From positions 261,587-325,586 of the forward strand of contig NBVN01000004.1 of NCBI GenBank assembly GCA_003056265.1: a stretch of 64,000 nt of DNA, read 5' to 3'. Of the stretch, positions 17,818 through 58,126 are shown one piece after another. Both the position numbers and the translations under genes were made by a program. Origin of the DNA: Zestosphaera tikiterensis. Lineage in GTDB: Archaea; Thermoproteota; Thermoprotei_A; Sulfolobales; NBVN01. The notes beneath the pieces are model-generated. The model saw only the letters and a program-made list of their open reading frames with translations. It was not told the origin of the DNA and did not search any database. Each line of letters starts with the position of its first letter. Within the stretch, counting starts at the first letter, position 1.

Positions 17818-17833
17818 AGAGTAAATTTACTCT
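17818..17833. repeat. 16-bp palindrome AGAGTAAATTTACTCT (variant of the GTGTAAATTTACAC family)
   Basis: Read directly from the sequence. Confidence 0.85.
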
Positions 17834-17944
17834 TAAAACACATTCCAACCTACACTAAAACCTCAGAAAAGCTAATTAAAATAAAAAACTAGATTTTCAG
17901 AGTTTATCAAGAACTGAAAATTCACTCAACCAGCTTTCTTAGTT

Positions 17945-18431: not shown

Positions 18432-18474
18432 GTGCGGTTTAATCATGCTTATTAATTCAGATATGTTAAGGTAG

Positions 18475-21437: not shown

Positions 21438-21905
21438 ATGGATACACGTAAAGCAATATCACCTATACTTGCTACAGTAATCCTAATAGCTGTAACTCTA
21501 GTAATAGCGATAGGAGTTATAGGCTGGATAATGGGCATATGGGGCTCTCTAGGAGGACCTTCAGAAAGCCTAGTAGTTACAGGCGGAGGAACAGCAACAG
21601 GTACTACTAACAGTCTAACTTTTACTGTGACAATAGTTAATAAAGGTTCAGGTTCAGCAAAGTTATCGAGAATTGAAGTATCTGGTATAGGTTCAGTAGG
21701 TTCAAACGAGAACGTCAAAGATGATGGCACGCAGAAGCAATTGCAACAGGTAGAAATTAAACCAGGCGAATCTCATACTGTGGAAGTAACTCTTGGTAAT
21801 TTAGGAAGTTTTACATGCGTTGTTGGCGCTACTTATAACGTTAACGTATATACTCAGGCAGGTAATGTATATAGTACTGTAATACGTGTTACTAGTTGCT
21901 CGTAA
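21438..21905 (+). CDS. archaeal type IV pilin (DUF1628 / archaeal pilin N-terminal domain)
   Basis: MDTRKAISPILATVILIAVTLVIAIGV is the canonical archaeal pilin/flagellin-like N-terminus. Confidence 0.75.
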   Translation: MDTRKAISPILATVILIAVTLVIAIGVIGWIMGIWGSLGGPSESLVVTGGGTATGTTNSLTFTVTIVNKGSGSAKLSRIEVSGIGSVGSNENVKDDGTQKQLQQVEIKPGESHTVEVTLGNLGSFTCVVGATYNVNVYTQAGNVYSTVIRVTSCS

Positions 21906-38704: not shown

Positions 38705-39781
38705 TTGGGTTTAAAAATGAGTCGATGTTGCGTTAAGACGGGTGTCGTTGGTTGGGGTGCGTACATCCCCCTCTACCGGTTGAGGTCTAAGGAGATAGCT
38801 AGCTTGTGGGGTTTCGACCCAAACGTGGCTGACTCTATATGGATTGAGGAGAAGTCTGTAGCTTCAGTAGATGAAGACGCGATAACTATGGGGTGGTACG
38901 CAGCTAAATACGCTTTAGTTAGGGGTGGGGTTAACCCTGAAGACGTAGGTGCTGTTTTCGTAGGTACTGAATCCAAGCCGTATGCGGTTAAACCATCCTC
39001 AACAGTTATAGCGGATGCTTTAGGGATTTCCAGGAAGAAATTAGCTACGGATTTAGAGTTTGCGTGTAGAGCTGCTGCTGAGGGGATTAGGTTAGCAGTA
39101 GCTTTAGTTTCAAGCGGTAGTATCAAATACGGTTTATCTATAGGTTCCGATACAGCTCAAGCAAGCCCTGGAGACGTGCTTGAGTTAACGGCTTCTTCAG
39201 GTGCTGTTGCGTTTTTAATAGGTCCTGCCGAGGAATCGGTTGCGGTGTTTGAGGGGTTAACGACGTACGTTACTGACACACCGGATTTCTGGAGGAGGGA
39301 GGGTTCTAAATACCCATCTCATGGCGAAGGATTTACAGGTGAGCCCGCGTACTTCCATCATATAATCTCTTCAGTGACTATGTTGCTGGAGGAGTTAGGT
39401 CTGAAGCCCTCGGATTTCGACTACGCAATCTTTCACCAACCCAACGGTAAGTTCCCTCTTCAAGTGGGGAGGGCTTTAGGATTTCCTAAGGAGAAGATCA
39501 CCCCAGGTTTAGTAACGCCGTGGATTGGGAACACCTACAACGCTTCAGCTCTGTTAGGCTTAGCTAAAGTTTTAGAAATCGCTAAGCCGGGTCAGAGGAT
39601 TTTAGTCGCTCCATTCGGGTCTGGAGCCGGTAGCGATGCTATGAGCTTAGTAGTCACCGATAAAGTTTTAGATAGGGTTCATAAAGCACCTACTGTGGAG
39701 GAGTTAATTAATAGGAAGAAATACGTAAGTTATGCTGAATACGCTAAATCAAGAAACTTAATCTTACGGAATGTGGGGTGA
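38705..39781 (+). CDS. hydroxymethylglutaryl-CoA synthase (archaeal type)
   Basis: GVVGWGAYIPLYRL at the N-terminus, the catalytic Cys context LEFACRAAAEG and the His motif IFHQPNGKFP. An ATG at 38717 is the likely start. Confidence 0.85.
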   Translation: MGLKMSRCCVKTGVVGWGAYIPLYRLRSKEIASLWGFDPNVADSIWIEEKSVASVDEDAITMGWYAAKYALVRGGVNPEDVGAVFVGTESKPYAVKPSSTVIADALGISRKKLATDLEFACRAAAEGIRLAVALVSSGSIKYGLSIGSDTAQASPGDVLELTASSGAVAFLIGPAEESVAVFEGLTTYVTDTPDFWRREGSKYPSHGEGFTGEPAYFHHIISSVTMLLEELGLKPSDFDYAIFHQPNGKFPLQVGRALGFPKEKITPGLVTPWIGNTYNASALLGLAKVLEIAKPGQRILVAPFGSGAGSDAMSLVVTDKVLDRVHKAPTVEELINRKKYVSYAEYAKSRNLILRNVG

Positions 39782-40925
39782 TGGAATGTTGAAGGCTTAC
39801 ATAGCATCTGTTGAGATGCTTAAAATAGATAGACACTACGATAAAAGCTATGTAGACATGGCTTTAGAAGTTATTGACGCTGTGTTAAACGGTGTTGGCT
39901 TAACCCCCTCCGAACTGGATTACATTATAGTATCTACAGCTTTCAACAGCTTATTAACACATCAGGTAGGGTCTTCCTACATCTTAGCTCAGTACTTAGG
40001 CGTTAAAAACGTTAACGTAGCGTCTGTAGAGGCTGGTGAGGCTTCAGGCGCTGCCGCGTTAGATTACGCGGCAAGCCTGGTTAAGTCAGGCAAAGCAAGC
40101 AAAGTTTTAGTTGTTGGTTTTGAGAAGATGAGTGAATATCCCTCATGGATTGTAAATAGGGAATATTCGAAAATACTTAACTACATGGTTGAAGGTATTA
40201 AAGGTGTTACGCCACCCGACTACGCCGCCATAATTATGAAGGAATATATGAGTAAATACAACGTTACGAGGGAAGACGTGTTTAAATGGAGTGTTAAAAT
40301 GCATGAAAACGCTTCTAAAAACCCATACGCTCAACTGCCTTTCAAAATATCTAAAGACTCCTACGTAAAATCTTTAGTTATGTCAGACCCTATAACAATG
40401 CATGATTCGTTCCCCGTAGGTGATGGGGCGGCGGCAGCGTTAATTGTAGGGGATGGCTTCACAAACAACGCACCTAAAGAACTTGTTGAGTTAGTTGACG
40501 TTGAGTCAAGCGTGAATCTACCGCTGTATTTAAGGGAGGATCTTACAGTGTTTGAAGCTACGGCTAAATCCTTAAGCAAGTTAACAAGTAAGCATAGGGT
40601 AAGCGTAACTAAAGACATGGCTTTAAACGTATATGACACGTATAACATCTACGGACTTATAACGTTAGAGTCTTTAGGTGTTGCCGAAAGAGGGAAAGCA
40701 CATGAAGTCATAGATGAGATGCCGTATTTAAACGTAGGTGGTGGTTTAAAAGCTAGAGGCCATCCCGTAGGCGCTACACCCTTATATCAATTAGGTGAGC
40801 TCTATAAGTTGATGACCGAAGGTTTCGCCGGTATGAAATACGATGGGGAGTACGGCATAATTCATTCCATGTCCGGCCCCGATAATACTTCCTGGCTTGT
40901 TTTGCTTAGGAGGTGTGTGAGATGA
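39771..40925 (+). CDS. thiolase-family protein (acetyl-CoA acetyltransferase-like) lacking the canonical catalytic cysteines
   Basis: Thiolase-fold landmarks are present (VLVVGFEKMSE, VGDGAAAALIV, NVGGGLKARGHPVGATP). The nucleophile position reads VEAGEASG (Glu) and the acid-base position reads MHDSFP (Ser). Confidence 0.75.
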   Translation: MWGDGMLKAYIASVEMLKIDRHYDKSYVDMALEVIDAVLNGVGLTPSELDYIIVSTAFNSLLTHQVGSSYILAQYLGVKNVNVASVEAGEASGAAALDYAASLVKSGKASKVLVVGFEKMSEYPSWIVNREYSKILNYMVEGIKGVTPPDYAAIIMKEYMSKYNVTREDVFKWSVKMHENASKNPYAQLPFKISKDSYVKSLVMSDPITMHDSFPVGDGAAAALIVGDGFTNNAPKELVELVDVESSVNLPLYLREDLTVFEATAKSLSKLTSKHRVSVTKDMALNVYDTYNIYGLITLESLGVAERGKAHEVIDEMPYLNVGGGLKARGHPVGATPLYQLGELYKLMTEGFAGMKYDGEYGIIHSMSGPDNTSWLVLLRRCVR

Positions 40926-41335
40926 AGCACTCAATCTCTATATTCTGGAGAGATAGGGAAAACCATTACAAGCTGTTAATAACTAAATGCCGGAACTGCG
41001 GTAAGTCGTCGTATCCGAAACTGAAGAGATGCCCATACTGCGGTTCAACCAATGTCGAGGTGGTTGAGTCTAAAGGGCGTGGTACTTTAGTGAATTACAC
41101 TATAACGTACTTTAGAGTGGATGGTAGTGAAGCAATGCTTCCTAAAGTTATTGGCCTTGTAAAGTTAGATGAAGGGGTTAAAGTTCCGGCAGAGATAGTT
41201 GATGTACCAGATTTAAGTAGTTTAAAACCTGGTCTCGAGGTTGAGGCGGTTTTAAGGAAGTATTCAAGTGATGACCCGCATGGTTTAATATATTACGGGC
41301 TTAAGTTTATACCGAGTATAATTAAGAAGCAGTGA
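40913..41335 (+). CDS. DUF35 OB-fold/zinc-ribbon protein (thiolase/HMGCS complex scaffold type)
   Basis: The zinc ribbon CRNCGKSSYPKLKRCPYCGS is followed by an OB-fold-like region. The gene sits in the conserved position after the thiolase gene. Confidence 0.8.
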   Translation: MCEMKHSISIFWRDRENHYKLLITKCRNCGKSSYPKLKRCPYCGSTNVEVVESKGRGTLVNYTITYFRVDGSEAMLPKVIGLVKLDEGVKVPAEIVDVPDLSSLKPGLEVEAVLRKYSSDDPHGLIYYGLKFIPSIIKKQ

Positions 41336-41393: not shown

Positions 41394-42650
41394 ATGGTAG
41401 ATTTCGTGTCCTTACTCTCCAGCAAGTTGGAAGTTTTCAAAGCCTCCGAGATTAGAGAGTTACTTAAGTTAACTGAGGGGAAGAACGTAATAAGCTTGGC
41501 TGGAGGCATGCCCGACCCGCAGACATTTCCTAAGAAGGAATTAGCTGAGATAGCTAAGGAGGTAATCCTCGAAAGAGGTGAGAACGCTCTTCAATACGCC
41601 CCAACAGCTGGCGTAACTGAGTTTAGGAAGGAGTTAACCAGGTATTTAGAGCGTAAAGGAGTTAAAGTAAATCGTGAGGATAGCATTATAGTAACTACAG
41701 GATCGCAGCAAGCGCTTGACTTAATAAGTAGGGTTTTCATAGATCATAACGACGTGATAATAGTTGAATTACCTACTTATCTAGCGGCTTTAAACGCTTT
41801 CAACATCTCAAAACCTGAGGTTGTGGGTATACCTATAGATGAGGACGGCATGAAGACAGACCTCCTAGCTAAAGAGCTTAAGAGGATCTACAGCGAAGGT
41901 AGGAAGGTTAAGTTTATATATACGATACCAGTAGCGCATAACCCAGCTGGAGTTACGATGAGTTTAGAAAGGAAGAAGGAACTTCTGGAGCTTGCTTCAA
42001 AATACGACATACCGATAATTGAGGACGACCCCTACTCGTACTTCGTTTATGAAGATGGTGTCGACACAACACCTCTTAAAACACTGGATAGAGAGGGTAG
42101 GGTAGTATACTTAGGTACCTTTAGTAAGATATTATCGCCTGGTCTTAGGTTGGGTTGGGTTTTAGGCAATAGCTACGTTATTGACTTACTTGAAAGAGCT
42201 AAGCAGTCGGCAGACCTCCACACGGCCACGTTATCGCAGTATATAGCTATGGAAGCGATACGGAGGGGCGTTGTTGACGCTACAATTGAGAAAGCTAAAC
42301 AGATATACAGAGTTAAGAGAGACGTTATAATCGACGCATTAACGGATAACATGCCTGAAAACACTTGGTGGCCTAAGCCTGTGGGAGGGCTCTTCCTGAT
42401 GGTGTTCTTACCCTCTCTAGAGATAGACACCAAGAAGATGTTGCCTGAAGCTATAGAGAGAGGCGTGGCTTACGTTCCCGGAGCCTCATTCTTTGCTAAC
42501 GGAGGCGGTTGGAACAGCATGAGGTTAAACTTCAGCTTCCCACCGCCGGAGAAACTCAATGAAGCCATCAAGATATTAGCGGATTTAGTTAAAGAGAAGA
42601 TTAAAGGACCTACGGTTAAGATCACTCCGGAAACTTTCTATAGGGTTTAG
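41394..42650 (+). CDS. PLP-dependent aminotransferase, class I/II
   Basis: NPAGVTM, the PLP-lysine motif TFSKILSPGLRLGW, and MRLNFS near the C-terminus. Confidence 0.85.
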   Translation: MVDFVSLLSSKLEVFKASEIRELLKLTEGKNVISLAGGMPDPQTFPKKELAEIAKEVILERGENALQYAPTAGVTEFRKELTRYLERKGVKVNREDSIIVTTGSQQALDLISRVFIDHNDVIIVELPTYLAALNAFNISKPEVVGIPIDEDGMKTDLLAKELKRIYSEGRKVKFIYTIPVAHNPAGVTMSLERKKELLELASKYDIPIIEDDPYSYFVYEDGVDTTPLKTLDREGRVVYLGTFSKILSPGLRLGWVLGNSYVIDLLERAKQSADLHTATLSQYIAMEAIRRGVVDATIEKAKQIYRVKRDVIIDALTDNMPENTWWPKPVGGLFLMVFLPSLEIDTKKMLPEAIERGVAYVPGASFFANGGGWNSMRLNFSFPPPEKLNEAIKILADLVKEKIKGPTVKITPETFYRV

Positions 42651-42670
42651 CTTTAACGGTTTAACTTCAA

Positions 42671-43543
42671 CTACTGTTTAACGTTTGAAGCTACGTAAGA
42701 TACGCGTGGGAAAACCTCAACTAAGTTTTTAACTTCGTTGAAATCGTTGGTAAACGCTACGTTGGAGTCGAGTACATATTTAACTATACCGCTTAACGCC
42801 TTCCTACCTGAGCCGTAGTTAAACCTTGAAGGCCTCACTAAAGACACTTTCTTAGGTTGCCCGAAATATCTTAAAGTAATGTGAGGCTGTTTAGGCGTTA
42901 AGTAAATAATACCTGCGTTGGTTAAGTACTTAGTTATTTCGAAACGAGGGTTTTCCGTAACTATTGCTAAGTCGTAACTTCTTAACTCACTTAAGTCTTT
43001 CCTTACAGATATCCCGACCTCATGTAAAGGCTTGAAAACTTCATCGTTACAGAATGCCGTAACGTCTACTAAGGATTTGAGGGAGAGGCTTAACACATAT
43101 GACGTGAAGTCACATCCAACAATAATCGCTGAGTTTAACCTCCGAGCTATCTTAAGCAACTCTTCTACGTAGCTAAACTCTATGTATAGACTAGAGTACT
43201 TATCTATCGGCTCCCCTTTAAGCTCTATTAAACACGTTGATGGAATAACCGAATACTCACTTAATAAACCATCAACGTCTAAACCTAGGAAACCAACTCC
43301 ACAGAATGGAACTACGCCGTAGATCTTACCTACGACAACGTTGGACTCAACACCCGCTTCAACCACCCTAACTACTCCAAAACTTCCTAAAGTTACGTTA
43401 CGTATCATCACCTCAGAAAAACCCGTCAACTTGGGTGAGTACGTCATAGCAGTTAAAACCTTACCTAAAACCCACCCCTGAGGTATCGGTGGTATAGGTA
43501 CCTCCCTAACCTCAACCCCTTCATACCACTTAACGCTTTTCAA
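42671..43543 (-). CDS. degenerate medium-chain dehydrogenase/reductase-like protein
   Basis: A GroES-like N-terminal pattern is present. I could not find the Zn ligands or a GxGxxG motif. Confidence 0.3.
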   Translation of the reverse strand: MKSVKWYEGVEVREVPIPPIPQGWVLGKVLTAMTYSPKLTGFSEVMIRNVTLGSFGVVRVVEAGVESNVVVGKIYGVVPFCGVGFLGLDVDGLLSEYSVIPSTCLIELKGEPIDKYSSLYIEFSYVEELLKIARRLNSAIIVGCDFTSYVLSLSLKSLVDVTAFCNDEVFKPLHEVGISVRKDLSELRSYDLAIVTENPRFEITKYLTNAGIIYLTPKQPHITLRYFGQPKKVSLVRPSRFNYGSGRKALSGIVKYVLDSNVAFTNDFNEVKNLVEVFPRVSYVASNVKQ

Positions 43544-45584: not shown

Positions 45585-46539
45585 AACCGTCTACTTAGGT
45601 GAGTCTTTAACAACGGTTCTCTCAAAGCCTAAAGATGAAGACCTGATAATGTCGTACACAGGAAGTGAAAGTACCCTCTCTGGATGGGTTTTAAGAGATT
45701 TAACAATAGATAAAGCACCGATTTTCGTTGAGAATCCGAAGTGTGTTGAATCGCTAGGGGGACATCCTGTAGAGTTAGACTATCACGTTGAAGTTCTAGG
45801 CACTGAAGAAGACTTAAGCAGGAAGTTTAATGGTGTGGAAAACCTTCGAATGTTTTGGCTACATAGATTCAAATCTAAAGCTTATATACCGCATGAGGGT
45901 TGGTCAACAGTATTTAAAGTTATGAAGTCTAAAATCAAGACTAGTAGGCTTTATACAAGCTTAAGTGAGGTTTCAGTAAGTGATAAAACCGTTAAGTTGG
46001 AAGGAGGTGTCTTCATAAGCTACGAGAAACTCATTAATACAATACCGCAGAAACTGTTCTTAAGTATAGTTAAAAGTGATGACTTACCTAAAACCCCCTT
46101 AAACGATTACGTCCACATACCGCTCCACATAACTGCAGTCGTAACTAAAAACACTTCATCTGTTAGGGAGGGTCTTGTTAAAGTATATTCGCTAGGTAAG
46201 AAGAGATATATACCCTCACATGTAGTCCTCTATAAAACATTCGATGTTGAATATACGTTAAATTACGTGATAACTCCATTAACGAGTGAAAGCATTAAAA
46301 GCGAGCTTTTATCTCAAGCGATTTCAACGCTTAAGAAGCTAGGCGTAGAAGTTAAACCTATATACGCTATACGTACTTACTTCGAACCTTATGGGGTTTT
46401 AGCGGGTAAACCTGAAAACGTTGTAAAATCGTTGGAGAAATACGATATAGAGTTCCGCGGCCGTTACGGTATGTGGTCTGAGTTGAGTATATGTGATATC
46501 TTAAGAGGTTTTGGACTCACCACTACCGAGCTTACGTGA
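45556..46539 (+). CDS. hypothetical protein (the C-terminus resembles FAD-dependent mutase/oxidase folds); an alternative start lies at 45649
   Basis: The C-terminal [15 protein letters not shown] resembles the GR.g.Y.Y.nmd motif of UDP-galactopyranose mutase-like proteins. The N-terminal dinucleotide motif is degenerate. Confidence 0.35.
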
Positions 46540-47379
46540 AATCACTTCCTTAAACTTCTTGAGTTCGTTTTCATCCATTAACCAAAACTCGCCTTCAGAC
46601 GGGAAAGAACCTTTTTTAACGTCATCTAAGTACTTCTTTAAAGCGTTAACTACAACTTCACTTAAGTTACTATATCTCCTAGCGAAAGGAGGTGGTTCGG
46701 GGTTTACACCCAGTAAATCGTAAATCACAAGTATTTGACCATCGCACCAAGGACCGGCGCCTATACATATAGTAGGTATTTTAAGCAGTTTAGTTATTTC
46801 CTCAGCGACTTGTGCTGTAGTGTATTCAATGACTATAGAGAAAGCGCCCGCCTCCTCTAATGCTTTAGCTGATTCAACAATCTCTAAAGCGTCATCAACT
46901 TTCTTACCCCTAAGTTTATAACCGCCCAGCTCTAAATACCTCTGCGGGTTTAAACCTACGTGACCCATCACTGGAATTCCAGCTTTAATTAAAGCCTCTA
47001 CTTTATCAACAACTTCTAAACCTCCTTCAAGTTTAACCGCGTCAGCACCTAGTTTCAACATCTTACCTGCGTTTCTTACGGCTTCAGACTTACTGACTTC
47101 ATAACTTAGAAAAGGCATATCAGCAACGACTAAGGATTTAGGTTTAGCGTTAAGAACGGCTTTTAAGTGGTGAGCGATTTCATTTAAAGTGACGGGTAAC
47201 GTTGATTTATAACCCATAACCACCATACCTAAAGAATCCCCAACGAGTATACCGTCAATGCCAGCTAAGTCAGCGAAAAGAGCTTCATAGTATGAATAAG
47301 CAGTAACCATAGCTATTTTTTCACCAGCTTTCTTCTTCTTAATGAAATCGTAAGGCATTAACTTACCTACCAAGCTCAC
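46501..47379 (-). CDS. panB: 3-methyl-2-oxobutanoate hydroxymethyltransferase (ketopantoate hydroxymethyltransferase)
   Basis: [34 protein letters not shown] and KLEGG are typical of PanB. Confidence 0.9.
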
Positions 47380-47517
47380 ACCACATATAATAGGTGTGTT
47401 TAAACTATTTAACTTACTAGGTTGCTTATGAAGGTTTGTTCAGCAGGATAGGAAACTCATACTGTTGACTGCCTGTTATTGTTCTGCGGTTATTGTTTGA
47501 TATTTTGATATCTAGCT

Positions 47518-48468
47518 TTAGAGTCTATAGTGCTGTCTTTCCTTAGCCTTAACTAACATTAAGAGAGTTTCATTCACGGGCGTTTTAACATTTACCAGCC
47601 TGCCCTTCCTCACAACCTCACCATTTATGAAGTCCACCTCAGTTTTACGTTTGTTGATGATGTCTTGAAGCATTGAGGAATAGTTATCGCCTGTGGACAT
47701 GGCTATCTTAACGTATTCTTCGTAGGGGTTTGACGGAAGCTTCACACCTAATGCGTTAGCTACCTCAACAACCTCATCCACTATTTTATCTGCTAAGTTG
47801 CGGAGGACTTCATCCTCAACTAAAGCTCTATTCTTAACACCTAAAACAGCTGTTAAAGGGTTTATAGCCGCATTAACAGCTAGCTTTAACCACATATAAG
47901 ATTTAATGTCGTCAACCACCTTAACGTTTAACAAGCTTAACTTGCCGGCTAGGTTACTAAGCACCTTCTTAGGGAGTCCTTCAGATCCAACGTAGCTTTC
48001 GGAACCCCCAACCCATACGTAGTGGGTTGGTTTCTCTCTATACACGCCGTGAGAAAGCACTAAAGCCGCTACTCTCTCCTTACCTACTTCTTTAACGGCT
48101 TGCTCGTAAGCAAATAAGCCGTTCTGACACGTAACTATAAAGCCTTTAGAACTTAAACTAGTTCTAACTCTAGAGAGCGCTTCAGGGAAGTCGTAATTCT
48201 TAGTCGTTATGAAGATTAAATCAAAGACCACTCCCTTAGTAGATATTTCCTCATAACTTGTGTATGAAGCCGCTAAAGTGACTACGTCGCCTACAGGCGT
48301 TTGAAGTTTAATACCTCCCTCCCTCAAAACGGCTTCCGCCCTCCTAGAGTCTTTAAAGATTAGATATGGTTTCATACCGGCTTTGTTTAACGCGTGCGAT
48401 AACAACGCACCTATAGCTCCCGGACCCACTACAGCTACATTATCTGTCATGATAAACCCTTCCCACAA
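47518..48468 (-). CDS. panE: 2-dehydropantoate 2-reductase (ketopantoate reductase)
   Basis: The N-terminal VAVVGPGAIGALLSHAL is followed by the ApbA/PanE C-terminal region (NPLTAVLG, SSMLQDI..RKTEVD.ING). Confidence 0.8.
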   Translation of the reverse strand: MWEGFIMTDNVAVVGPGAIGALLSHALNKAGMKPYLIFKDSRRAEAVLREGGIKLQTPVGDVVTLAASYTSYEEISTKGVVFDLIFITTKNYDFPEALSRVRTSLSSKGFIVTCQNGLFAYEQAVKEVGKERVAALVLSHGVYREKPTHYVWVGGSESYVGSEGLPKKVLSNLAGKLSLLNVKVVDDIKSYMWLKLAVNAAINPLTAVLGVKNRALVEDEVLRNLADKIVDEVVEVANALGVKLPSNPYEEYVKIAMSTGDNYSSMLQDIINKRKTEVDFINGEVVRKGRLVNVKTPVNETLLMLVKAKERQHYRL

Positions 48469-48523
48469 TCATTACTTAATTAAGCTTTTATTAATCCTGC
48501 GTAGATCTTCTTAGGTGTAGATA

Positions 48524-50701
48524 ATGGGTTTAAGAGTTAAGGTAGGGGCATTTGACAAAACTAAGGTGCTTACGGTAATTTCTGTAGTTGCTTTCCTTAT
48601 AAGTGCTTTTGTAGGGAGTTACCTAAGGCTTTACCCAGTGATCAATTCGGAGTCGTTGGGTTACGAACCACTACTTAACGAGTTAGATCCCTACTCTGAG
48701 TATTGGGTTGCTGAGAAAATGCTTGAGAAAGGTTTAACATACTATTTTAGCTTAACTAGGGATAACAACGAAACACATATCTTCTGGTATCCGTGGGGTC
48801 GTGACTTCGTTAAGTCCTCCTTACCTATGCTACCCTTCTTTTCTGTACTCACGTACCAGATAGCTAAGCTCTTCAATCAAGGACTAACGCTTTTTGAATG
48901 GATGGTTTACCTACCCATACTTTTTTACTTAATGTCCTTAACGGGTATCTACTTAAGCGCTAGAGAGTTATGGGGTGATATCCCAGCAGCAACATCAGCC
49001 GTTATAACAGCTTTAATCTTTAACAGTAGGCAAATCGCGGGATTTACGGTTAAGTATTCAGTAGGCCTCGCGTTCTTCTTCATAGCTATTTACTTCTACG
49101 TTAGAACTTTAAAACATGGTAGGTATTTAGATGCCTTACTTACAGGCGTGTTCCTCGCCGCTACCGCTGCTGGTTGGGCAGGGTTTAACCTACTGCTTGC
49201 CGCTATGTTCCTACACACAGTTCTCCTTCCATTAATTAAAGAGAAAATAACGTATAAGGATGTGATCCTGTGGGCTTTAGAAACTCTACCTCTAGCTTTA
49301 ACCATATCTGTAACTCCGTTTTACGGGGTCTTATACTTAATTAAAAGTGTAGGTGTAATTATACCGTTGGGTTTCGCGACTTTAGCTATTGCTTTAGGGG
49401 TATTAAAGTTAGCTTCATCGAGGACTGTCCGCCTTAAATACCCGTTACTCACTAAGTACAAGGTAATTTACCTCCTGCTTATAGCGTTGATCGGCGTCGG
49501 AGGCCTTTTAGGCTTAGTAAGCGGTGCAATAAGCGTTAAGGGTAAGGGCTTAGCGGCTATGGGTTTAAAGGAATTAACGCATGTATTGGTTGGGACTGTT
49601 CAGGAATACGCCCCAGGGGATGCGCAAACATTCATCACAAGTGCTGGGGCGCCGTTAATCGTGTCATTACTTATGCTGATATACTTCGCTTATAGAGCTT
49701 TACTTAAGAAAGACCAACTTAATCTATTCGTGGGTATTCTACTGCTGGTTATATTCTACGCAACAGTAAATCTCTCCTACTTCTACCCATTGCTTAATTA
49801 CACAGTGGCTTTAACTCAAGCTGGGTTCGTTGCTTTACTGCTTAATCCGTTGATTAAACGCGGTGTTAGGAGGGATTGGTTCACTACGTTGTTAGCGTTG
49901 GTACTGCTTATATCGTATGTTGGAGTTACGTTAGCTCAAGGCGCCTTACTTTGGGTTAATGCTTACAGATCGCAAACACCGTTAATACTTGATTCAGGAC
50001 TTGGTGTTGGAGTTGAAGCCCCTGCGTGGTTAGACACCCTCAACTGGTTAAGGACTAACACACCTAAGGATAGTGTGGTCGTGTCTTGGTGGGACTACGG
50101 TTATTGGATATCGGTTGTTGGTGAGAGGGCCTCCGTTGCGGATGGTGCTACTTTAAACACCACGCAGATTGAGCTTCTAGCTAAAGCTTTAACTAGTGAT
50201 GAGCGTGAAGCTTATAAGATATTCACGCAGGACTTCAGGATACCTCCGGAGAAGCTTTACGTAGTCGTATATGATGTAGTCTTAGTGAGTGATTACTACT
50301 TAGCTGTCTTCCCAGGGCCTTTAGCGTTTCAAAACGCTTACTTGGGAGCCGACGCTGCTAAAGGTATTTCAGCTATTTACAGGATAGCTAATAAAACACC
50401 ACCAACGGCTGTGGCGCAAGTAAGTCAATACGTGGCTTACAGCGTTCCTGACTGGACAAGCAACGAGTTGAGGAACGCTACGCTTTACAAGATTTTACTA
50501 GACTCGATATATGAAGTCTTCGGTAGGGAAGGCTATACTGTAAGATTCCTCTACACCTCAGGTGGTTACTGGCCTGAAATACCTAGACCTAAAATGGAGG
50601 TGTTTAAACCGGCTTACATAGCCGTTAGTAAGATGTTTCAAAACCCACCGGTATATGTCATTGTTGCCGTTTATAAGGTAGGGGACTTAAGTAATGCCTG
50701 A
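48524..50701 (+). CDS. aglB: oligosaccharyltransferase AglB (STT3 family)
   Basis: A large multi-TM N-terminal domain plus the catalytic WWDYGYWI motif. Confidence 0.9.
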   Translation: MGLRVKVGAFDKTKVLTVISVVAFLISAFVGSYLRLYPVINSESLGYEPLLNELDPYSEYWVAEKMLEKGLTYYFSLTRDNNETHIFWYPWGRDFVKSSLPMLPFFSVLTYQIAKLFNQGLTLFEWMVYLPILFYLMSLTGIYLSARELWGDIPAATSAVITALIFNSRQIAGFTVKYSVGLAFFFIAIYFYVRTLKHGRYLDALLTGVFLAATAAGWAGFNLLLAAMFLHTVLLPLIKEKITYKDVILWALETLPLALTISVTPFYGVLYLIKSVGVIIPLGFATLAIALGVLKLASSRTVRLKYPLLTKYKVIYLLLIALIGVGGLLGLVSGAISVKGKGLAAMGLKELTHVLVGTVQEYAPGDAQTFITSAGAPLIVSLLMLIYFAYRALLKKDQLNLFVGILLLVIFYATVNLSYFYPLLNYTVALTQAGFVALLLNPLIKRGVRRDWFTTLLALVLLISYVGVTLAQGALLWVNAYRSQTPLILDSGLGVGVEAPAWLDTLNWLRTNTPKDSVVVSWWDYGYWISVVGERASVADGATLNTTQIELLAKALTSDEREAYKIFTQDFRIPPEKLYVVVYDVVLVSDYYLAVFPGPLAFQNAYLGADAAKGISAIYRIANKTPPTAVAQVSQYVAYSVPDWTSNELRNATLYKILLDSIYEVFGREGYTVRFLYTSGGYWPEIPRPKMEVFKPAYIAVSKMFQNPPVYVIVAVYKVGDLSNA

Positions 50702-51941
50702 GGTGTGCGGTAATTACGTGGTTTTAAACCCTTACGTATGGCTTAAGAACGCCTGCGTGGTTTTTAAGGAGAGGATAGAGGATATTTACCCGTTAGGTTC
50801 TGAGGTGGGGGAAGGCCTTAAAAACACTGTAGTTACGCATGGCTTAGCTTCAACACATACGCATTTAGGGCTGTATCAAATACGTTTAAGTGTTTCCGAA
50901 GGCTTACCGCTTGATGAGTGGGTTAAGCTTAGGGCGTGGCCCTGGGAAAAGTTTTTAAGGAGTAACCCGCAACTTACGTATTATGTTGCTTTAAACGCTT
51001 TGAAAGAGCTTCTTAAATCCGGTGTTACGTTAGTTGCTGACATGCACTTTAACGAGTTTTGGGTTTATAAGGCGTTAATTGACGTTGGAGTTAAAGGGGA
51101 TTTAAGCGTAGCTATAATGGACGGCGGCGTTTTCGAGAATTTCGAAGAGGGGCTTGAGGAGAACTTAGATCTTTCTAGGAGGGCTTCCGATCCTAAGGTA
51201 AGGGTTAGGTTAGGCCCGTGCACACCTAGGCTTCTAACTCCACTACAGTATAAGGAAGTTGTAGAGACAGCTGAAGAGTTAGGTTTAGGGATACACACCC
51301 ACATAGCTGAAGTTCTAGATGATGAGTTATGGTTAAAAAGCAGGTATGGAATGAGCCTTAGAGATTTCGCGCATTACGTAGGTTTAGGTAATGTAGATAC
51401 CTTAGCTGCTCACGTTGTTTGGGGTGAAAGCCTTATAGAATTCCTTTCTTCGAAAGGGGTTAAAGTTTCCCACCCACCTAGGTCAAACACCTTATTAGGT
51501 GATGGTAGAGCACCGATTAAAAGCTATTTAAAGAATGGCGTAAGAGTAAGCTTAGGTGTGGACGTAGCTCCAACATATAGCTTAGTTGACGACATGAAAT
51601 CCTACCTAGTTCTTCATTACGAAGGGGAAGGCATACCTCAAACACATGAAGCTTTCAAGATCGCGACGGTTAACGGCTATCAAGACCTAGGCTTCGGTTC
51701 CGGTGAGTTAACACTTAAAGAACCTGCTGATGTAGTTGTGTGGGAATTACCTAAGGACGTTAGTAAGGTTGGGTTAAACCCCATATCCAGCATTGTTTGG
51801 GGCGGTGCTAAAGTTAAGGAGGTTTATGTTAATGGTGTTAAAGTGTTTGAAGAAGGTAATTTAATTAATGTTCATGTGTCGGCAGACTCCATCAACGCTA
51901 AAATCGAGGAATATCTAAAGGACTTTAAGCGTGAGGATTAA
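50694..51941 (+). CDS. amidohydrolase-superfamily deaminase (MTA/SAH deaminase / guanine-deaminase-like)
   Basis: ASTHTHLG (the HxH metal site), GIHTHIAE and the later AHVVW..HPPRSN pattern. Confidence 0.7.
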   Translation: MPEVCGNYVVLNPYVWLKNACVVFKERIEDIYPLGSEVGEGLKNTVVTHGLASTHTHLGLYQIRLSVSEGLPLDEWVKLRAWPWEKFLRSNPQLTYYVALNALKELLKSGVTLVADMHFNEFWVYKALIDVGVKGDLSVAIMDGGVFENFEEGLEENLDLSRRASDPKVRVRLGPCTPRLLTPLQYKEVVETAEELGLGIHTHIAEVLDDELWLKSRYGMSLRDFAHYVGLGNVDTLAAHVVWGESLIEFLSSKGVKVSHPPRSNTLLGDGRAPIKSYLKNGVRVSLGVDVAPTYSLVDDMKSYLVLHYEGEGIPQTHEAFKIATVNGYQDLGFGSGELTLKEPADVVVWELPKDVSKVGLNPISSIVWGGAKVKEVYVNGVKVFEEGNLINVHVSADSINAKIEEYLKDFKRED

Positions 51942-52648
51942 TACTTAGTGGATTCGAGTTTGCTACGTTGTTTTAAGATAAGTGTTTTTATGCGGGAGCT
52001 TATATAGACAGTTACGTTACGTATCTCAGACAATAGAGCTTTTACAGAACCTTTTAATCCATGTGTTATATGTTCGTCAACAACTTTAGCCCAATTGATG
52101 TTTAATATATAGTACGCTATTACTAAAGTCACTAATACCATGGCTGGTATCACATAACTGTTCACACCCTCCAGTTCCTGAGCGAATAAACTACCGTAGA
52201 AAACAGTAATAGACGTTAGCACTAACTTACCCATTAAAACAGCTATGAAATACGCTGGAAGCGAGTATTTAACCATCCCAGTAGGTAAGTATAGCACATC
52301 ATCTGGGAGGGGAAGTGCCGCAAACACGAAAATCGCTATAAACAGAGATTTACTAGCCAACTTCCTAAACAACTCTATGTTTTCCTTTGTATGCTCGCTT
52401 ACTTTTAAGGTTAAAGCCCTGCCAACGGAGTAGATTATCAACTTACCTAAAGTAGCCCCTAAAGCAGACGAAGCAATTATAGCTACTTTAGCGAGCGGGT
52501 CTTTATAATACGTAGCGTAGCCTATTATAGCCAGCAAATACGGAAGTGAGACGAAAGGTATTGAGTTACTTATTAAACTAATGATGAAAGGCCCTAACGG
52601 AGGCGCTATCAACACATGCAGTAGCCTAGCCCAAATCATGAACGTCAT
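51938..52648 (-). CDS. DedA/VTT-domain-like membrane protein
   Basis: A multi-TM protein of about 236 aa. Resemblance to DedA family topology is weak. Confidence 0.4.
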   Translation of the reverse strand: MTFMIWARLLHVLIAPPLGPFIISLISNSIPFVSLPYLLAIIGYATYYKDPLAKVAIIASSALGATLGKLIIYSVGRALTLKVSEHTKENIELFRKLASKSLFIAIFVFAALPLPDDVLYLPTGMVKYSLPAYFIAVLMGKLVLTSITVFYGSLFAQELEGVNSYVIPAMVLVTLVIAYYILNINWAKVVDEHITHGLKGSVKALLSEIRNVTVYISSRIKTLILKQRSKLESTKY

Positions 52649-52773
52649 CCACGCTTAACAGACTTTTAACCCCGCTATTTCTTTTAATTGTTACTTAATT
52701 AAACGCATTTAAGCTTTATTAAACGGGGCTTAATCCACCTAGATTGCTTAAGGTCTTCAAACCAATCGATGAC

Positions 52774-53328
52774 TTAAGTAAGAGGTTCCTCAACTATAGG
52801 TACGTTCTCCCCTACTAAAGCACTTCTACCTAACGGGTCTTCTAATATTAGAGTAAACTTCAGTTTAGCGTTCATAGCATCAACGATCTTAACCACTACG
52901 TTATGACATTCATGGCTTTCGTTAAAGCATTCTGACGGCATATTATCTAAGATCTTTTCTAAAACACCCTCAACAGTTGTTATATATCCTTCAGCTGCAG
53001 GCCCAGGAACTACCTCAATACCTAACTCCGGTATTTCAATTCTAGCTGTTGAGGACTTAATAACTAAAGCCCTTAACTCCCTATCCGTGTTTACACTTAT
53101 CTTCAACCTCTTAGCTTTCCCAACCCCCGCTAAACCCACGTTAGACTTTCTATAACCGCAAACACCGCATTTCCATACCTCCATAACTACCTCACCCGCT
53201 AAAGGAACTACGTACGTGTAGACACTATATTTAAGAGTCTTACCACCACATACAGGACATTCAACTTCGTCTTCGTAGATGGGCTTTAACTCCTCCACAG
53301 CTTCCCACCGCCATATAATATTTACCAT
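52774..53328 (-). CDS. ZPR1-type zinc-finger protein
   Basis: CPVCGGK...CGVCGYR is followed by a beta-rich domain, as in archaeal ZPR1-like proteins. Confidence 0.65.
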   Translation of the reverse strand: MVNIIWRWEAVEELKPIYEDEVECPVCGGKTLKYSVYTYVVPLAGEVVMEVWKCGVCGYRKSNVGLAGVGKAKRLKISVNTDRELRALVIKSSTARIEIPELGIEVVPGPAAEGYITTVEGVLEKILDNMPSECFNESHECHNVVVKIVDAMNAKLKFTLILEDPLGRSALVGENVPIVEEPLT

Positions 53329-53606
53329 AGCAGGTTATTCTATTTAGCGATTTCTACAATACATTATATACTATTCCCTTCCACCTCTGAGTTATTTGAC
53401 TTTGTATCGGGTTTAAAGCCTTCAAGACCTCTTAAGACTGAGATCAGTTAGTGATGTCTAAGGGTAGGGGGCTTAGAACCGACGGAAACATAGGTGACTC
53501 GTACTTAATTATTACTACTTATTTTTAAATATTCCTACGTCAAATAATAACTTGAAAAAACAATAGAAAAGAAAAAGACTGAAAGTAAGGTTTTGGGTGA
53601 GTTAGG

Positions 53607-53852
53607 TTGTGGTTTGCTTTTTTGACTTCGCCGTTGGGTCCTAACTTACGAATTCTTAAGAAGCTCGTCTTAGCTAATGTTCACGAACGAAGCGAGTTTG
53701 AAGCCTTGAAGAGTAGGGTATCTGGGGTTTTAGATCTTACGGAGGTCTCAGTAGAGGATGTTGATATGCTTTACTTAGTTAGTTCTGTAGATCCGGATAC
53801 GGCTGATTTGATAAAGTTAGGTTTTAAAGGGTTTATAATAGCTGAGCTATAG
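53607..53852 (+). CDS. hypothetical protein
   Basis: ORF track only (TTG start). Confidence 0.3.
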   Translation: MWFAFLTSPLGPNLRILKKLVLANVHERSEFEALKSRVSGVLDLTEVSVEDVDMLYLVSSVDPDTADLIKLGFKGFIIAEL

Positions 53853-53906
53853 CTGAGCTTAAGTGAATTTTAAAGCTCTGAAAAAATCTTTAAATGGGGA
53901 TTAAGG

Positions 53907-54443
53907 ATGTCCGACAGAAGAAGGAGGAAGTCGATATTCGATATCTTCGATGAACTCTTTAGAGAGTTGGATGAGGAGATGCGTGAATTCCTAGAGGAGA
54001 GCGAGAGATTTTGGCGTATGAGACCTGAAGACTTTGAAGAACTACAACGTAAGGGTTTAGGACCCTATGTTTACGGCTTTAGAATACATATAGGGCCAGA
54101 CGGTAAAATCAAAGTAGACGAGTTTGGCAACGTTAGGAGGGAGGGACCTAAGCCTAAGATAGCTGAGGAGATAGAACCTTTAGTTGATGTTATAGATGAG
54201 GGAGATAAGGTTAGGATCATAGCTGAAGTTCCAGGTGTTGAAAAGGATAAGATAAAGCTTAAAGCCGTTGGTAAAGAACTCATTATCCAAGCAAGCAACG
54301 GTAAGAAATACTATAAGAAAGTTCAACTACCTGATGAGGTAGATGTTAAAACAGCTAAGGCGCAGTATAGAAACGGCGTCTTAGAAGTAGAGTTAAAGAA
54401 GTCAAAGAAGGAATCTGGAGAGTATGAAATAAAAATTGAATAA
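53907..54443 (+). CDS. small heat shock protein Hsp20
   Basis: The alpha-crystallin domain reads EPLVDVIDEGDKVRIIAEVPGVEKDKIKL ... VQLPDEVDVKTAKAQYRNGVLEVELKK. Confidence 0.9.
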   Translation: MSDRRRRKSIFDIFDELFRELDEEMREFLEESERFWRMRPEDFEELQRKGLGPYVYGFRIHIGPDGKIKVDEFGNVRREGPKPKIAEEIEPLVDVIDEGDKVRIIAEVPGVEKDKIKLKAVGKELIIQASNGKKYYKKVQLPDEVDVKTAKAQYRNGVLEVELKKSKKESGEYEIKIE

Positions 54444-54464
54444 ATAAATACGTGGAGATAGGAA

Positions 54465-55277
54465 TTGAGTGCCTGCGAGGATAGGGAAGAAAAAGATAAA
54501 AACGTTTTTAAAGCTTTAATACCTAAGAACCACCCACGTTATGAATCCCTACTTTTAAGGGAGAAGATAATCGAAGGTCTTAATGAAGGCTATGTTGCTC
54601 AAGCTGGGTTAATAGCTCATGGGAGGGGGGAATGCTTTGATTACTTAATAGGTGAGAAGACCATAGACCCAGCTTTAAAGGCTATAGACGCTGCTGCCGC
54701 TGCTTTAATCTTAGCTAAGCATCCAGTGATTTCAGTAAACGGTAACGTAGCTGCTTTAGTCCCTAAGGAAATAGTTGAATTAGCTAAGAAAGTCAACGCT
54801 AAGTTAGAAGTTAATTTATTCTATAGAACCGAAGAAAGAGTTAGAAAAATAGCTGATATACTTAGAAGATGCGGTGCTGACGAAGTTTTAGGGGTTGATG
54901 ACGCTACGGCTTCTATCCCAGAGTTATTTAGTGAGAGGAGGAAAGTCAGCCCTAAAGGAATATATATAGCAGATGTTGTTTTAGTTCCTTTAGAGGATGG
55001 GGATAGGACGGAAGCTTTAAGGAAGATGGGGAAAACCGTAATAGCTATAGACCTTAATCCGTTATCAAGAACCTCTAGATCAGCAAACATAACTATAGTG
55101 GATAACGTGGTTAGAGCCATACCTAAACTTACTGAACGCGTCGAAGAACTTAAAAAACTTGATAGGGAGGTGTTGCGGGACATATTAAGGAACTACGACA
55201 ACGATAGGGTTTTAGCTGAAGTCATAACATACATAATGAATAGATTGAAAGACCTAAGTAAGGAGTTAACTAAGTAA
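54465..55277 (+). CDS. phosphopantothenate synthetase (4-phosphopantoate--beta-alanine ligase, archaeal CoA pathway)
   Basis: [77 protein letters not shown] closely parallels the Thermococcus kodakarensis enzyme as I recall it. Confidence 0.85.
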
Positions 55278-55309
55278 AGCCATGCTTAAATTAACGTAAT
55301 CCCCATCCC

Positions 55310-55633
55310 TTAATATATTAAAACTCCTTCGCAGAAGTCGTTATCGTCATGTAGAGTTAAACCTAAACTACTTACCTCCTGAGTTTTAGGGCTTTCATTA
55401 CCTAAAGCTGAAAGTATTAAGTCCGTTAACTCTTCAGGCGTTAACTTCTTATTTACTGTAAACTCTATGTCGTTAATAATCAACGAAACCCTAGAGTCTT
55501 TCGAATAGTATGGTATTACGTAAACCTCAACCCCATATTCATGAAATAGCTTCTGAGCCGTATACCACGTTAACTTAAGGAGTTCCTCACCCAACAAGCT
55601 TCCATTAGTAACTACTATCACGTCAACAGGCAC
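55310..55633 (-). CDS. hypothetical small protein (paralogous to 61057-61341)
   Basis: ORF track. By-eye similarity to the 94-aa ORF at 61057-61341. Confidence 0.4.
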   Translation of the reverse strand: MPVDVIVVTNGSLLGEELLKLTWYTAQKLFHEYGVEVYVIPYYSKDSRVSLIINDIEFTVNKKLTPEELTDLILSALGNESPKTQEVSSLGLTLHDDNDFCEGVLIY

Positions 55634-56010
55634 TTTCTAACCCATGTAAAACCTGGTCTCAATATTGTTTTTAAGAACTCACTCTTAATTAAGATTGGAT
55701 CTTAACGCTATCGTAAACATGTAGGATTTTTAATGTTTGCGCAGGATTAAGTAAAGACCTTAGCTCTTAGTAATGAGTGAAACTTTAGATAGTAGCTTTA
55801 TATAGCAAGCCATCCTTTCTATACCAGAAAGTAGGGTTTGCTCTGTTGTTTAAACTTAGTGAGTAAGCAGGTATGGTAAACCCTTAAATGTTCTCGATTA
55901 ATTGAGGAGAGTTAGCTCCCGTAGAGTAATTAAGAGGTAAATAACCGTTATGAGCCTAGTTATGACAGACACGAAATGAAGACATAGCTAAGACAAACGA
56001 GATTTTTACT

Positions 56011-56904
56011 TCATGAACTAAATAGAGTTCCATGTCGGCATATTTTAAACACGCCTAGAGGTTCACTAATCTTCTTTAAAACTTCGTAGGTTTCGTTGAT
56101 GTAGTTCGCCTGAGTTAATACTGCGATAGTGCCTTTCTTTACGAAATACCCTAAGACCGCACCTTTGCTTAGGAGAGTTCGTAGGGAATCATCCACTTTA
56201 TCTTTTAATGTATTTTCCAGCATCCCCGTCTTAACGCTAAACTCATGCGCTTGCTCTATGAACGTATCCAACGAAGGATTTCTTAAAAACTTTAAATAAG
56301 ACTCTAGCCCATACTTCCGTATTTTACCGGCATAGAGCTTAAGCATTTCAGGCGTTGTTAAGCCTTTCCTAACCAATCCAACACATACAGCCACATTTTC
56401 CTTTACAGGTACGACGTCAACCTCACCTACCCCAGGAGGGCCCGGTTTTAAACGTATGACTAAACCCCCGCCAATTAATTCAGCTATAACGTCGCCAAGG
56501 CCTGTTCTTAAAGTTACCTCCGCCATGTGAGCCAATACCCCAACTTTTTTCAACGTTATAGGTATGGCTCTTTTAATTAGAGCTGATGTGGCTAACGTAA
56601 TAGATAGAGCAGCGCTTAAACCAAGTCCCTGACCTAAACCTACGGGACTCGCTACAAAAGCTCCTAAATCCTTAACTCCTGCTAAGCTCTCCATAACTTG
56701 CTTTAAATCCTGACCTACCTCAACCAAGTTTAACTTAAGAGTTTTTTCGCTGAAGTTTTTAGAAGTCACCACAGGTTCGAGGGTTAACCCAACGCCTAGG
56801 GAACCTGTGGTTATGGGGTCTGAAGTATAGTGTGGTATCCAAAACCCCGTTATGTGGAGAGGTATTTTAAGCTCTCTTACCATATGCGAGTTCATCTCTA
56901 ACAA
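56011..56904 (-). CDS. GHMP-family kinase, probably pantoate kinase (archaeal CoA pathway)
   Basis: A GHMP phosphate-binding motif, PVGLGQGLGLSAALS. The gene overlaps coaBC and lies near the phosphopantothenate synthetase gene. Confidence 0.65.
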   Translation of the reverse strand: MLEMNSHMVRELKIPLHITGFWIPHYTSDPITTGSLGVGLTLEPVVTSKNFSEKTLKLNLVEVGQDLKQVMESLAGVKDLGAFVASPVGLGQGLGLSAALSITLATSALIKRAIPITLKKVGVLAHMAEVTLRTGLGDVIAELIGGGLVIRLKPGPPGVGEVDVVPVKENVAVCVGLVRKGLTTPEMLKLYAGKIRKYGLESYLKFLRNPSLDTFIEQAHEFSVKTGMLENTLKDKVDDSLRTLLSKGAVLGYFVKKGTIAVLTQANYINETYEVLKKISEPLGVFKICRHGTLFSS

Positions 56905-58126
56905 TGTCTAATATCCTCCGTGCTACAACCTCCTTCAAAGACTTAGGTATGTGTTCTTTAAAGCCGTTCTTACCGACCACCACTACCTCATTATAATCTG
57001 AGGCGAAGCCTATCTCAGGGTTGCTAACATCGTTAGCTACTATGTAATCAAACCCTCTGCTAATTAACTTATGTTGTGCTAACTCTATGAGCTTATTTAA
57101 ATCGTTAAACACGGTTTCGGCAGCAAAACCTATAAGCAGGCCTTTGTAAACTTCCCTAACCTTAGCGGAGATCTTAGGGGTGGTTTCAAGAACTATTTGA
57201 AGTTCGTTTATGTCTGACTTTATCTTCTCCTTATAAACAGTCCTAAACCTAAAGTCTGAAGGCGCTGCCGCCATTATCACAGCGTCATATTTACGACTTC
57301 TAACCTCATTTAAAACAGCTTCCAACATCTCTTCAGTTGATTCAACAGCTATGTTCCTAGTGTAATACGGTTTAGACACAGATAAAGGTCCGTGAATTAA
57401 AGTCACGTTAGCCCCTCTGAAGTAAGCTTCTCTAGCTATAGCAACACCCATCTTACCAGAGCTTGAATTCGTTATATATCTAACGCTATCTAACCTTTCA
57501 CGCGTAGGTCCTGAAGTCACTAAGATGTTTAACCCACGTAGATCCTTACCCCTTAAAGTGACCGCTTCAACCGCTGCTATGACGTCCTCCGCATCTGGGA
57601 ATTTCGCACGGCCCTCAACTAAGTTAGGCCATAAAACCGTAACGCCTAAGCTCGTTAGAAACTCAAGTGCTTTAACTATTGGTGGGGACTTCCATAGGCC
57701 TTCATGCATAGTAGGAACTAATATTAACGGCTTTCCTAAACCAAGCATGTTAACCGCTGTTAACGTTACTGGATTATCGCCGATGCCTGCCGCTATCTTA
57801 GCTATGGCGTCAGCACTAGCTGGAGCAACTGTAAACGAACTGCCTTCAAAACTTAACGCAACATGTCCTGTCTCACCTTTAAACTCCGTGAAAACCTTAG
57901 TTCCAGTAGCCCACTCAATAAGCGTTGGGTTTATAAGTTCTGTTGCTGCTTTACTCATCACAACGTATACGTCGGCACCTCTCCTAATAAGCTCTCTCAT
58001 GATGTCGATTACTCTATATATAGAGACGGAACCCGTCAAACCAAAAACTAGCTTAACCCCTTCAAGATGCTTAGATTTAGTGCTTTTAATCTCGTCGGCA
58101 GGATGTCGTAAAGGTTCCTTCAGCAT
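56867..58126 (-). CDS. coaBC: bifunctional phosphopantothenoylcysteine decarboxylase / phosphopantothenate-cysteine ligase
   Basis: An N-terminal flavoprotein domain (LVFGLTGSVSIYR, PASADAIAK) and a C-terminal DFP domain (ILVTSGPTRE.LD.VRYITNSSSGKMG). Confidence 0.9.
   Translation of the reverse strand: MLKEPLRHPADEIKSTKSKHLEGVKLVFGLTGSVSIYRVIDIMRELIRRGADVYVVMSKAATELINPTLIEWATGTKVFTEFKGETGHVALSFEGSSFTVAPASADAIAKIAAGIGDNPVTLTAVNMLGLGKPLILVPTMHEGLWKSPPIVKALEFLTSLGVTVLWPNLVEGRAKFPDAEDVIAAVEAVTLRGKDLRGLNILVTSGPTRERLDSVRYITNSSSGKMGVAIAREAYFRGANVTLIHGPLSVSKPYYTRNIAVESTEEMLEAVLNEVRSRKYDAVIMAAAPSDFRFRTVYKEKIKSDINELQIVLETTPKISAKVREVYKGLLIGFAAETVFNDLNKLIELAQHKLISRGFDYIVANDVSNPEIGFASDYNEVVVVGKNGFKEHIPKSLKEVVARRILDIVRDELAYGKRA

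Follow-up and report, generated by a model that had tools for sequence, protein, structure and literature searches.

A thiolase-fold subunit without a catalytic cysteine, probably a non-catalytic scaffold, in the mevalonate operon of a clade of hot-spring archaea

Isoprenoid lipid synthesis begins with an unfavourable step, for which nearly all archaea are described as relying on a complex of HMG-CoA synthase (HMGCS), the thiolase ACAT and a DUF35 protein. In the Methanothermococcus complex, the DUF35 protein and the thiolase dimer reportedly scaffold HMGCS and contribute to a fused CoA-binding site. Canonical ping-pong thiolase chemistry depends on a Cys thiolate. The corresponding genes of Zestosphaera tikiterensis are located in a 64,000 nt stretch of contig NBVN01000004.1 (assembly GCA_003056265.1, positions 261587–325586), which was analyzed as a whole and is termed the window. 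The gene placed between the HMGCS and DUF35 genes of this mevalonate operon (39771–40925, plus strand) encodes a thiolase-fold protein of 384 aa. It occupies the ACAT position and has no catalytic Cys.

The HDxF His of ACAT enzymes has been probed by substitution. HMG-CoA is no longer formed by the Methanothermococcus complex with the H284A change, and in the Pseudomonas enzyme PfACAT the change H294Y nearly abolishes thiolysis (PMC12960953). Related bacterial complexes retain dead subunits, i.e., PhlA, MucA and the Pf HMGS domain, and in them the ACAT-like Cys is still present and becomes acetylated (PMC12960953). Tyr of the YD motif is the catalytic base in the thiolase-fold proteins Ltp2 and Sal (PMC12329534).

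Residue positions in the window protein were taken from HMMER pairwise alignments, and profile scores were judged against the curated cut-offs of Pfam and NCBIfam. The nucleophilic Cys is replaced by Glu90, encoded by GAG (40038–40040, plus strand), and the CxS motif reads E-A-S. Glu90 is aligned with the nucleophile Cys of the P. furiosus enzyme (7yvy, IEAACASG), of the Methanothermococcus enzyme (6esq, VEAACASG) and of zebrafish SCP2-thiolase (6hsj, VNNNCSTG). An earlier inspection of the letters alone, here called the sequence-only reading, had proposed this replacement of Cys by Glu. It holds in the alignments with characterised thiolases, which place no Cys at the active site. The sole Cys is residue 382 of the 384 aa, near the C-terminus as had been stated. 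Canonical thiolase catalysis needs the Cys thiolate and is thus excluded for the window protein, as judged from its aligned residues.

The second catalytic Cys was a more complex case. The sequence-only reading had taken MHDSFPVGDGAAA (residues 210–222) as the HDCF motif, with Ser in place of Cys. This is a different loop. Its segment MHDSFPVGDG (210–219) matches LMHCSPVSDG of 6esq and LLQCCPTSDG of 6hsj, and Ser213 (TCG, 40407–40409, plus strand) does fall on their Cys, which is the part of the claim that stands. A Cys opposite Ser213 is also missing from the Cys-type crenarchaeal orthologues and from 7yvy, which have Ser or Ala (LLDSSP, LFDASP), so its absence says little. The true equivalent of HDxF/HDCF is Y288-D-T-Y291 (TAT GAC ACG TAT, 40632–40643, plus strand), with V-Y288-D-T-Y291 aligned to VHDAF in 7yvy, VHDCF in 6esq and LHDCF in 6hsj. 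Here His is changed to Tyr288 and Cys or Ala to Thr290. The essential His and the acid-base Cys position are therefore both changed, and the loss of this His had gone unrecognised. The GHP motif is kept (G330-H331-P332; His331 is CAT at 40761–40763, plus strand). The window protein thus has the GHx His of ACAT enzymes and lacks the nucleophilic Cys of CxS and the essential His of HDxF.

The protein is still assigned to the thiolase superfamily, with a predicted archaeal/SCP2-type fold of five alpha-beta-alpha-beta-alpha layers over its full length. Pfam detects Thiolase_N (PF00108) at 65.7 bits (cut-off 26.4) and Thiolase_C_1 (PF22691) at 38.2 bits (cut-off 28). All NCBIfam scores are under their cut-offs, e.g., 252 against 420 for NF004720, the best, and 181 against 600 for NF053570. 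The AlphaFold2 model, made from a 60-sequence alignment, has a mean pLDDT of 95.1. Among PDB structures, Foldseek matches it best to the thiolase chains from the complex of Methanothermococcus (6et9_C, TM-score 0.93, rmsd 1.7 Å). These results bear out the earlier view of a thiolase fold along the whole protein, which is a positional orthologue of the ACAT subunit of the archaeal HMGCS/ACAT/DUF35 complex.

Both partner proteins are intact. HMGCS (38705–39781, plus strand) has the complete catalytic tetrad E89, C121, H244 and N276, of which the Cys and the His had already been noticed. It scores 538 bits with NF003274 (cut-off 244) and 464 bits with TIGR00748 (cut-off 353); against chain 6esq_I, the HMGCS of Methanothermococcus, the score is 397 bits. 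The DUF35 protein (40913–41335, plus strand) is a stand-alone scaffold protein of 140 aa with a zinc ribbon and an OB fold (Pfam zf-ChsH2 and OB_ChsH2_C). It is aligned with 6esq_E at E = 1.2e-20. Its zinc-ribbon Cys residues are present at positions 26, 29, 40 and 43, in keeping with the intact ribbon described before.

The Glu state was followed in the 120 best homologues and in 150 representatives from an exhaustive search. Among the 120 best homologues, all those down to approximately 38% identity have G-E-x-S-G instead of A-C-G-S-G, and Glu is at the nucleophile position in 89 cluster representatives, down to approximately 35% identity. An independent metagenome yielded a protein of 99% identity (P0001) with the same catalytic residues. 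In a neighbour-joining tree built with the catalytic columns masked and without support values, a single clade of 96 tips holds 90 of the 95 Glu sequences. Of its remaining tips, five have Asp and one has Leu; none has Cys. On this tree Glu is fixed in a near-monophyletic clade, so it is not a strain-specific error. The clade includes Zestosphaera, Ca. Zestomicrobium, metagenome-assembled genomes of Desulfurococcaceae and 'Sulfolobales', Caldisphaeraceae, Acidilobaceae and the cultured Acidilobus saccharovorans 345-15. The nearest Cys-type sequences are from Hyperthermus, Pyrodictium and unnamed Desulfurococcales.

Only two differences are fixed between the Glu clade and its Cys-type orthologues, A89G and C90E, with Glu in 89/89 members compared. 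The Glu codon is GAG in most loci and GAA in Acidilobus. Among these related genomes the Glu state is clade-wide, and the state at Ser213 is uninformative. The proteins contain a median of one Cys, some none. A different Cys in the role of the lost nucleophile was considered and rejected, as no Cys column of the whole alignment is conserved in the 96 members (at most 12/96). Of 91 Cys-type proteins, 89 have both active-site His residues, compared with 71 of 96 Glu-clade members; the GHP His is retained in about 95% of the clade. YDTY is limited to the sub-lineage of the window protein (14–15 representatives), and most of the clade has HDS[YF]. The losses vary by sub-lineage; at the nucleophile, HDxF and GHP positions they read E/Y/H in the window's lineage, D/H/Y and L/T/N in two others, and further combinations elsewhere.

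Every examined member of the Glu clade is in the mevalonate-operon slot. In A. saccharovorans the Glu form lies in an HMGCS-X-DUF35-HMG-CoA reductase operon (L008, finished genome CP001742). In locus L010 the order is HMGCS-X-DUF35-aminotransferase, downstream of an oligopeptide ABC transporter, with synteny as in the window. The Cys form is found in the equivalent HMGCS-X-DUF35 slot of Hyperthermus butylicus (L009) and of loci L012 and L015. The E-C-H-N tetrad of HMGCS is kept at all these Glu-form and Cys-form loci, and DUF35 is intact at every examined locus. Other replacements occur in the same slot. An Asp variant nested in the Glu clade (P0126, with GYP for GHP) is in HMGCS-X-DUF35-HMG-CoA reductase (L014), a Gln variant outside the clade (P0061) is in an HMGCS-X-DUF35 operon with HMG-CoA reductase (L018), and a Gly variant (P0113) is in HMGCS-X-DUF35 (L019). 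The HMGCS tetrad is intact in 3/3 of these loci. By parsimony the nucleophile column has undergone at least 41 state changes across 268 homologues.

Some further variation was seen at this column and in this slot. The nucleophile Cys has often been lost in archaeal/SCP2-type thiolases, with Asp, Gly, Ser, Pro, Ala, Asn, Gln, Leu and Tyr all occurring at its position, most of them in uncharacterised proteins. In archaeal locus L013 (4204–6614), a Cys-type thiolase (VEAACGSG, HDAY) and a DUF35 gene are beside a truncated HMGCS-like protein of 260 aa. The latter has K-F-H-S in place of the E-C-H-N tetrad. This is the inverse arrangement, like the bacterial PfACAT/HMGS-DUF35.

The thiolase-like gene is clearly functional and under strong purifying selection. 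For close Zestosphaera-like pairs the ratio of nonsynonymous to synonymous substitution rates (dN/dS) is 0.066–0.097, and it is 0.037–0.064 for HMGCS and 0.050–0.097 for DUF35. Constraint is, at the same time, relaxed relative to HMGCS. The ratio of thiolase to HMGCS amino-acid divergence is 0.96 (0.84–1.03, n=3) between Cys-type loci and 1.62 (1.36–1.99, n=21) between Cys-less ones, where the baseline consists of three Cys-type loci and the pairs are not independent. After the loss of Cys the subunit has been about 60% freer to change.

We give about an even chance to the reading that the window protein is a pseudo-thiolase, kept as a scaffold and CoA-binding partner of HMGCS. It is favoured because the subunit evolves faster, its catalytic residues are eroded, Asp, Gln and Gly have replaced Cys independently, and HMGCS and DUF35 are intact. 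It is also favoured because there are mirrored precedents with a dead HMGS-like subunit (PMC12960953). The pseudo-enzyme would form a complex with HMGCS and DUF35 in which it and DUF35 hold the HMGCS dimers together, and it would contribute one half of the CoA-binding site that it shares. The acetoacetyl-CoA would have its source outside the thiolase-like active site. Glu90 might serve as a plug or a hydrogen-bond partner in the former acyl site, and a dead thiolase site could stop the thiolytic loss of acetoacetyl-CoA supplied from catabolism. The sequence-only reading had left a choice between a scaffold and unconventional chemistry. With canonical chemistry out the scaffold is preferred, and some weight still remains on chemistry by Glu.

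Several points weigh against a scaffold. S92, G93, H178, D212, D218, G219, D289, GGLK and GHP are conserved in the Glu clade, and this retained active-site core goes beyond what one would expect a pure scaffold to require. The change from Cys (TGY) to Glu (GAR) takes three nucleotide changes. As Glu is invariant in spite of such a path, selection for Glu itself, and not simple decay, looks likely. Neither the 64 kb window nor the fetched flanks (≤ 10 kb) yielded another enzyme that forms acetoacetyl-CoA, and tblastn with Cys-type thiolases detected no further thiolase in them. An inactive thiolase would also take away the channelling rationale of the HMGCS/ACAT/DUF35 complex. The narrow baseline of the rate comparison given above counts on the same side.

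The foremost alternative is that the Glu form still makes acetoacetyl-CoA by cysteine-independent chemistry, which we regard as unlikely. As a nucleophile, Glu90 could form an acetyl-glutamyl mixed anhydride, in the manner of CoA-transferases. As a general base, it could instead enolise acetyl-CoA for direct Claisen condensation, like the Asp/His of citrate synthase. The conservation of Glu in 90 of the 96 clade tips, with five Asp among the other six, argues for such a role, and the route from Cys over three nucleotide changes implies selection for Glu. The retention of both oxyanion-hole His residues and of the whole conserved core in 71/96 members, the strong purifying selection and the persistence of the gene in the mevalonate operon beside HMG-CoA reductase are consistent with it as well. 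The proposal is weakened because the HDxF His is lost in the window's own lineage. Other sub-lineages are without the GHP His or without Glu itself (Leu, Gly), and their HMGCS is intact. The protein changes approximately 1.6 times faster relative to HMGCS. Literature searches turned up no thiolase-fold enzyme with a Glu nucleophile, and we know of none. A broader form of the proposal, in which the clade has no conventional thiolase feeding the mevalonate pathway and the Glu subunit makes acetoacetyl-CoA without Cys, through an acyl-glutamyl anhydride or a general-base Claisen condensation, is somewhat more doubtful. If true, Glu-based synthesis would be a previously unknown catalytic mode of the thiolase fold at the entry to archaeal membrane-lipid synthesis.

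It is improbable, more so than chemistry by Glu, that the protein has acquired a different reaction, either as a malonyl-CoA decarboxylase like KSQ/CLF or TbSLP, or as a (retro)aldolase like Ltp2 or Sal with Tyr288 as the base. The Gln variant in the equivalent operon slot (P0061, L018) recalls KSQ. Gln is at the nucleophile position only in P0061 and P0072, which are separate variants; the window protein has Glu90 and not the Gln for active-site Cys that marks KSQ/CLF. The motif YDTY resembles YDHF of TcLtp2, YDCY of CtSal and YDCF of TbSLP (PMC12329534), and Ltp2 and Sal are likewise bound to DUF35 proteins (6ok1). However, YDTY is confined to the window's sub-lineage, with HDS[YF] in most of the clade, and its third residue is Thr, where Ltp2 and Sal have a catalytic His or Cys. 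There are no steroid, MaoC or polyketide synthase genes nearby, the decarboxylase activity of TbSLP is very slow (kcat 0.005 s-1; PMC12329534), and the mevalonate context offers no obvious need for a decarboxylase or aldolase reaction.

A sequencing or assembly error or a decaying pseudogene, which the sequence-only reading had named in part as a strain-specific error, can be dismissed, as identical residues are present in independent assemblies (P0001–P0003, L001–L006) and in finished genome CP001742, Glu is clade-wide, the open reading frames (ORFs) are intact with a dN/dS of about 0.09, and the structural model is of high confidence.

The gene boundaries probably need adjustment. As annotated, the start of the thiolase-like ORF (39771) overlaps the end of HMGCS (39781) by a few bases. 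The probable true start is Met6, an ATG at 39786, because this gives the 379 aa length of the closest homologues and is preceded by GGTGAT. This ATG is 5 nt past the HMGCS stop, and GGTGAT resembles a Shine-Dalgarno sequence. DUF35 probably begins with an ATG at 40922, and this ATG overlaps the stop codon of the thiolase-like gene as ATGA. The two junctions, an ATGA overlap and a 5-nt gap with GGTGAT, suggest translational coupling. Just downstream of DUF35 there is a class I/II aminotransferase gene and a minus-strand ORF of about 290 aa (41394–43543), syntenic with positions 7564–9747 of L010. The Glu-type locus of L010 is 43% identical to that of the window, and in other lineages HMG-CoA reductase is in the position of the aminotransferase.

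The rest of the window contains a membrane-bound hydrogenase module, type IV pilus genes, the oligopeptide (Opp) transporter, the aminotransferase and several CoA-biosynthesis genes. The hydrogenase/complex-I-like module (565–6086) encodes an NADHdh subunit, a fused 30 kDa + 49 kDa/NiFe large subunit (567 aa) and a 20 kDa subunit, together with a pyridine-nucleotide disulphide oxidoreductase and a 4Fe-4S protein. A block of low GC content (14000–21900; 0.35–0.40 vs about 0.43) has five ORFs of 155–393 aa without a Pfam match and an N6-adenine/Eco57I-type methylase (14297–15841). An integrated element or a defence island could account for this block. The CoA-biosynthesis genes are grouped at 46501–58126, a few kb from the HMGCS operon, and encode ketopantoate hydroxymethyltransferase (46501–47379), ketopantoate reductase (47518–48468), phosphopantothenate synthetase (54465–55277) and CoaBC (56867–58126). 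Genes for the hydroxymethyltransferase and the reductase are also found just upstream of the Hyperthermus operon (L009). A search of the window with Rfam gave no matches.

In Zestosphaera-like Desulfurococcaceae and in Acidilobaceae, the thiolase half of the complex is conserved yet unable to work in the known way. Either acetoacetyl-CoA is made by another route and a pseudo-enzyme is kept for assembly or CoA binding, or the thiolase fold has a new chemistry. The Cys-less subunit of this hot-spring clade is probably a non-catalytic scaffold and marks a variant form of the known archaeal HMGCS/ACAT/DUF35 complex; literature searches gave no description of a Cys-less ACAT in Desulfurococcales or Acidilobales. 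Proteins of the Glu clade are annotated automatically as acetyl-CoA C-acetyltransferase. Reconstructions of a complete mevalonate pathway in these lineages may, because of this annotation, be wrong at step one.

A comparison with known systems shows where the window operon differs. ST0096 of Sulfolobus tokodaii (4yzo) has an archaeal SCP2-type fold, its structure is solved, and it is likewise without the nucleophile Cys (VDNTSGSG, Ser). However, it belongs to a separate paralogue family of Sulfolobaceae and Thermoplasmataceae, keeps the His of HDxx and is not adjacent to HMGCS or DUF35. It was rejected as the HMGCS partner of Sulfolobus, as it is not HMGCS-linked. The family (L016, 5001–6397; L017, 5001–6431) includes S. 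acidocaldarius, S. solfataricus and Thermoplasmataceae sequences with Ser at the nucleophile position. Its genes are always followed by an ORF of 89–96 aa without a Pfam match, and a family-III CoA-transferase gene is near.

Ltp2-ChsH2(DUF35), Sal-Shy and TbSLP (6ok1, 9myr, 5ab4-7; PMC12329534) have the SCP2-type thiolase fold and are no longer thiolases. Ltp2 and Sal are DUF35-associated, and all three have Tyr for the His of HDCF (YDHF, YDCY and YDCF, compared to YDTY in the window protein). The identity to them is only about 20%, and their context is steroid catabolism, whereas the window neighbours are HMGCS, the Opp transporter and the aminotransferase. The DUF35 domain of Ltp2 and Sal systems is fused to a MaoC-type hydratase; that of the window is the stand-alone protein of 140 aa. 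In the YD(H/C)(F/Y) motif of Ltp2 and Sal the residue after Asp is a catalytic His or Cys, and in the window protein, where Tyr is present, it is Thr.

The Methanothermococcus complex is close in organisation. The three genes are in identical order, HMGCS has the identical E-C-H-N tetrad (397 bits), DUF35 is similar at E = 1e-20, the thiolase-fold subunit superposes with a TM-score of 0.93 and 1.7 Å, and the GHx His is kept. The differences are in the thiolase subunit, which scores only 144 bits at 29% identity and has Glu for the nucleophile Cys and YDTY for HDCF.

PhlACB, MucABC and PfACAT-HMGS-DUF35 are homologous tripartite complexes that also keep one catalytically dead subunit (PMC12960953). 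In these systems the HMGS-like subunit is dead, having lost the tetrad, and the ACAT Cys is kept. The window operon shows the reverse, an intact HMGS and a Cys-less ACAT-like subunit. The bacterial complexes belong to secondary metabolism or have no known role, whereas the window genes are in an essential mevalonate operon. Taken with these mirrored cases of dead HMGS and live ACAT, the window operon suggests by analogy that either catalytic subunit can be retired while the architecture of the complex is kept.

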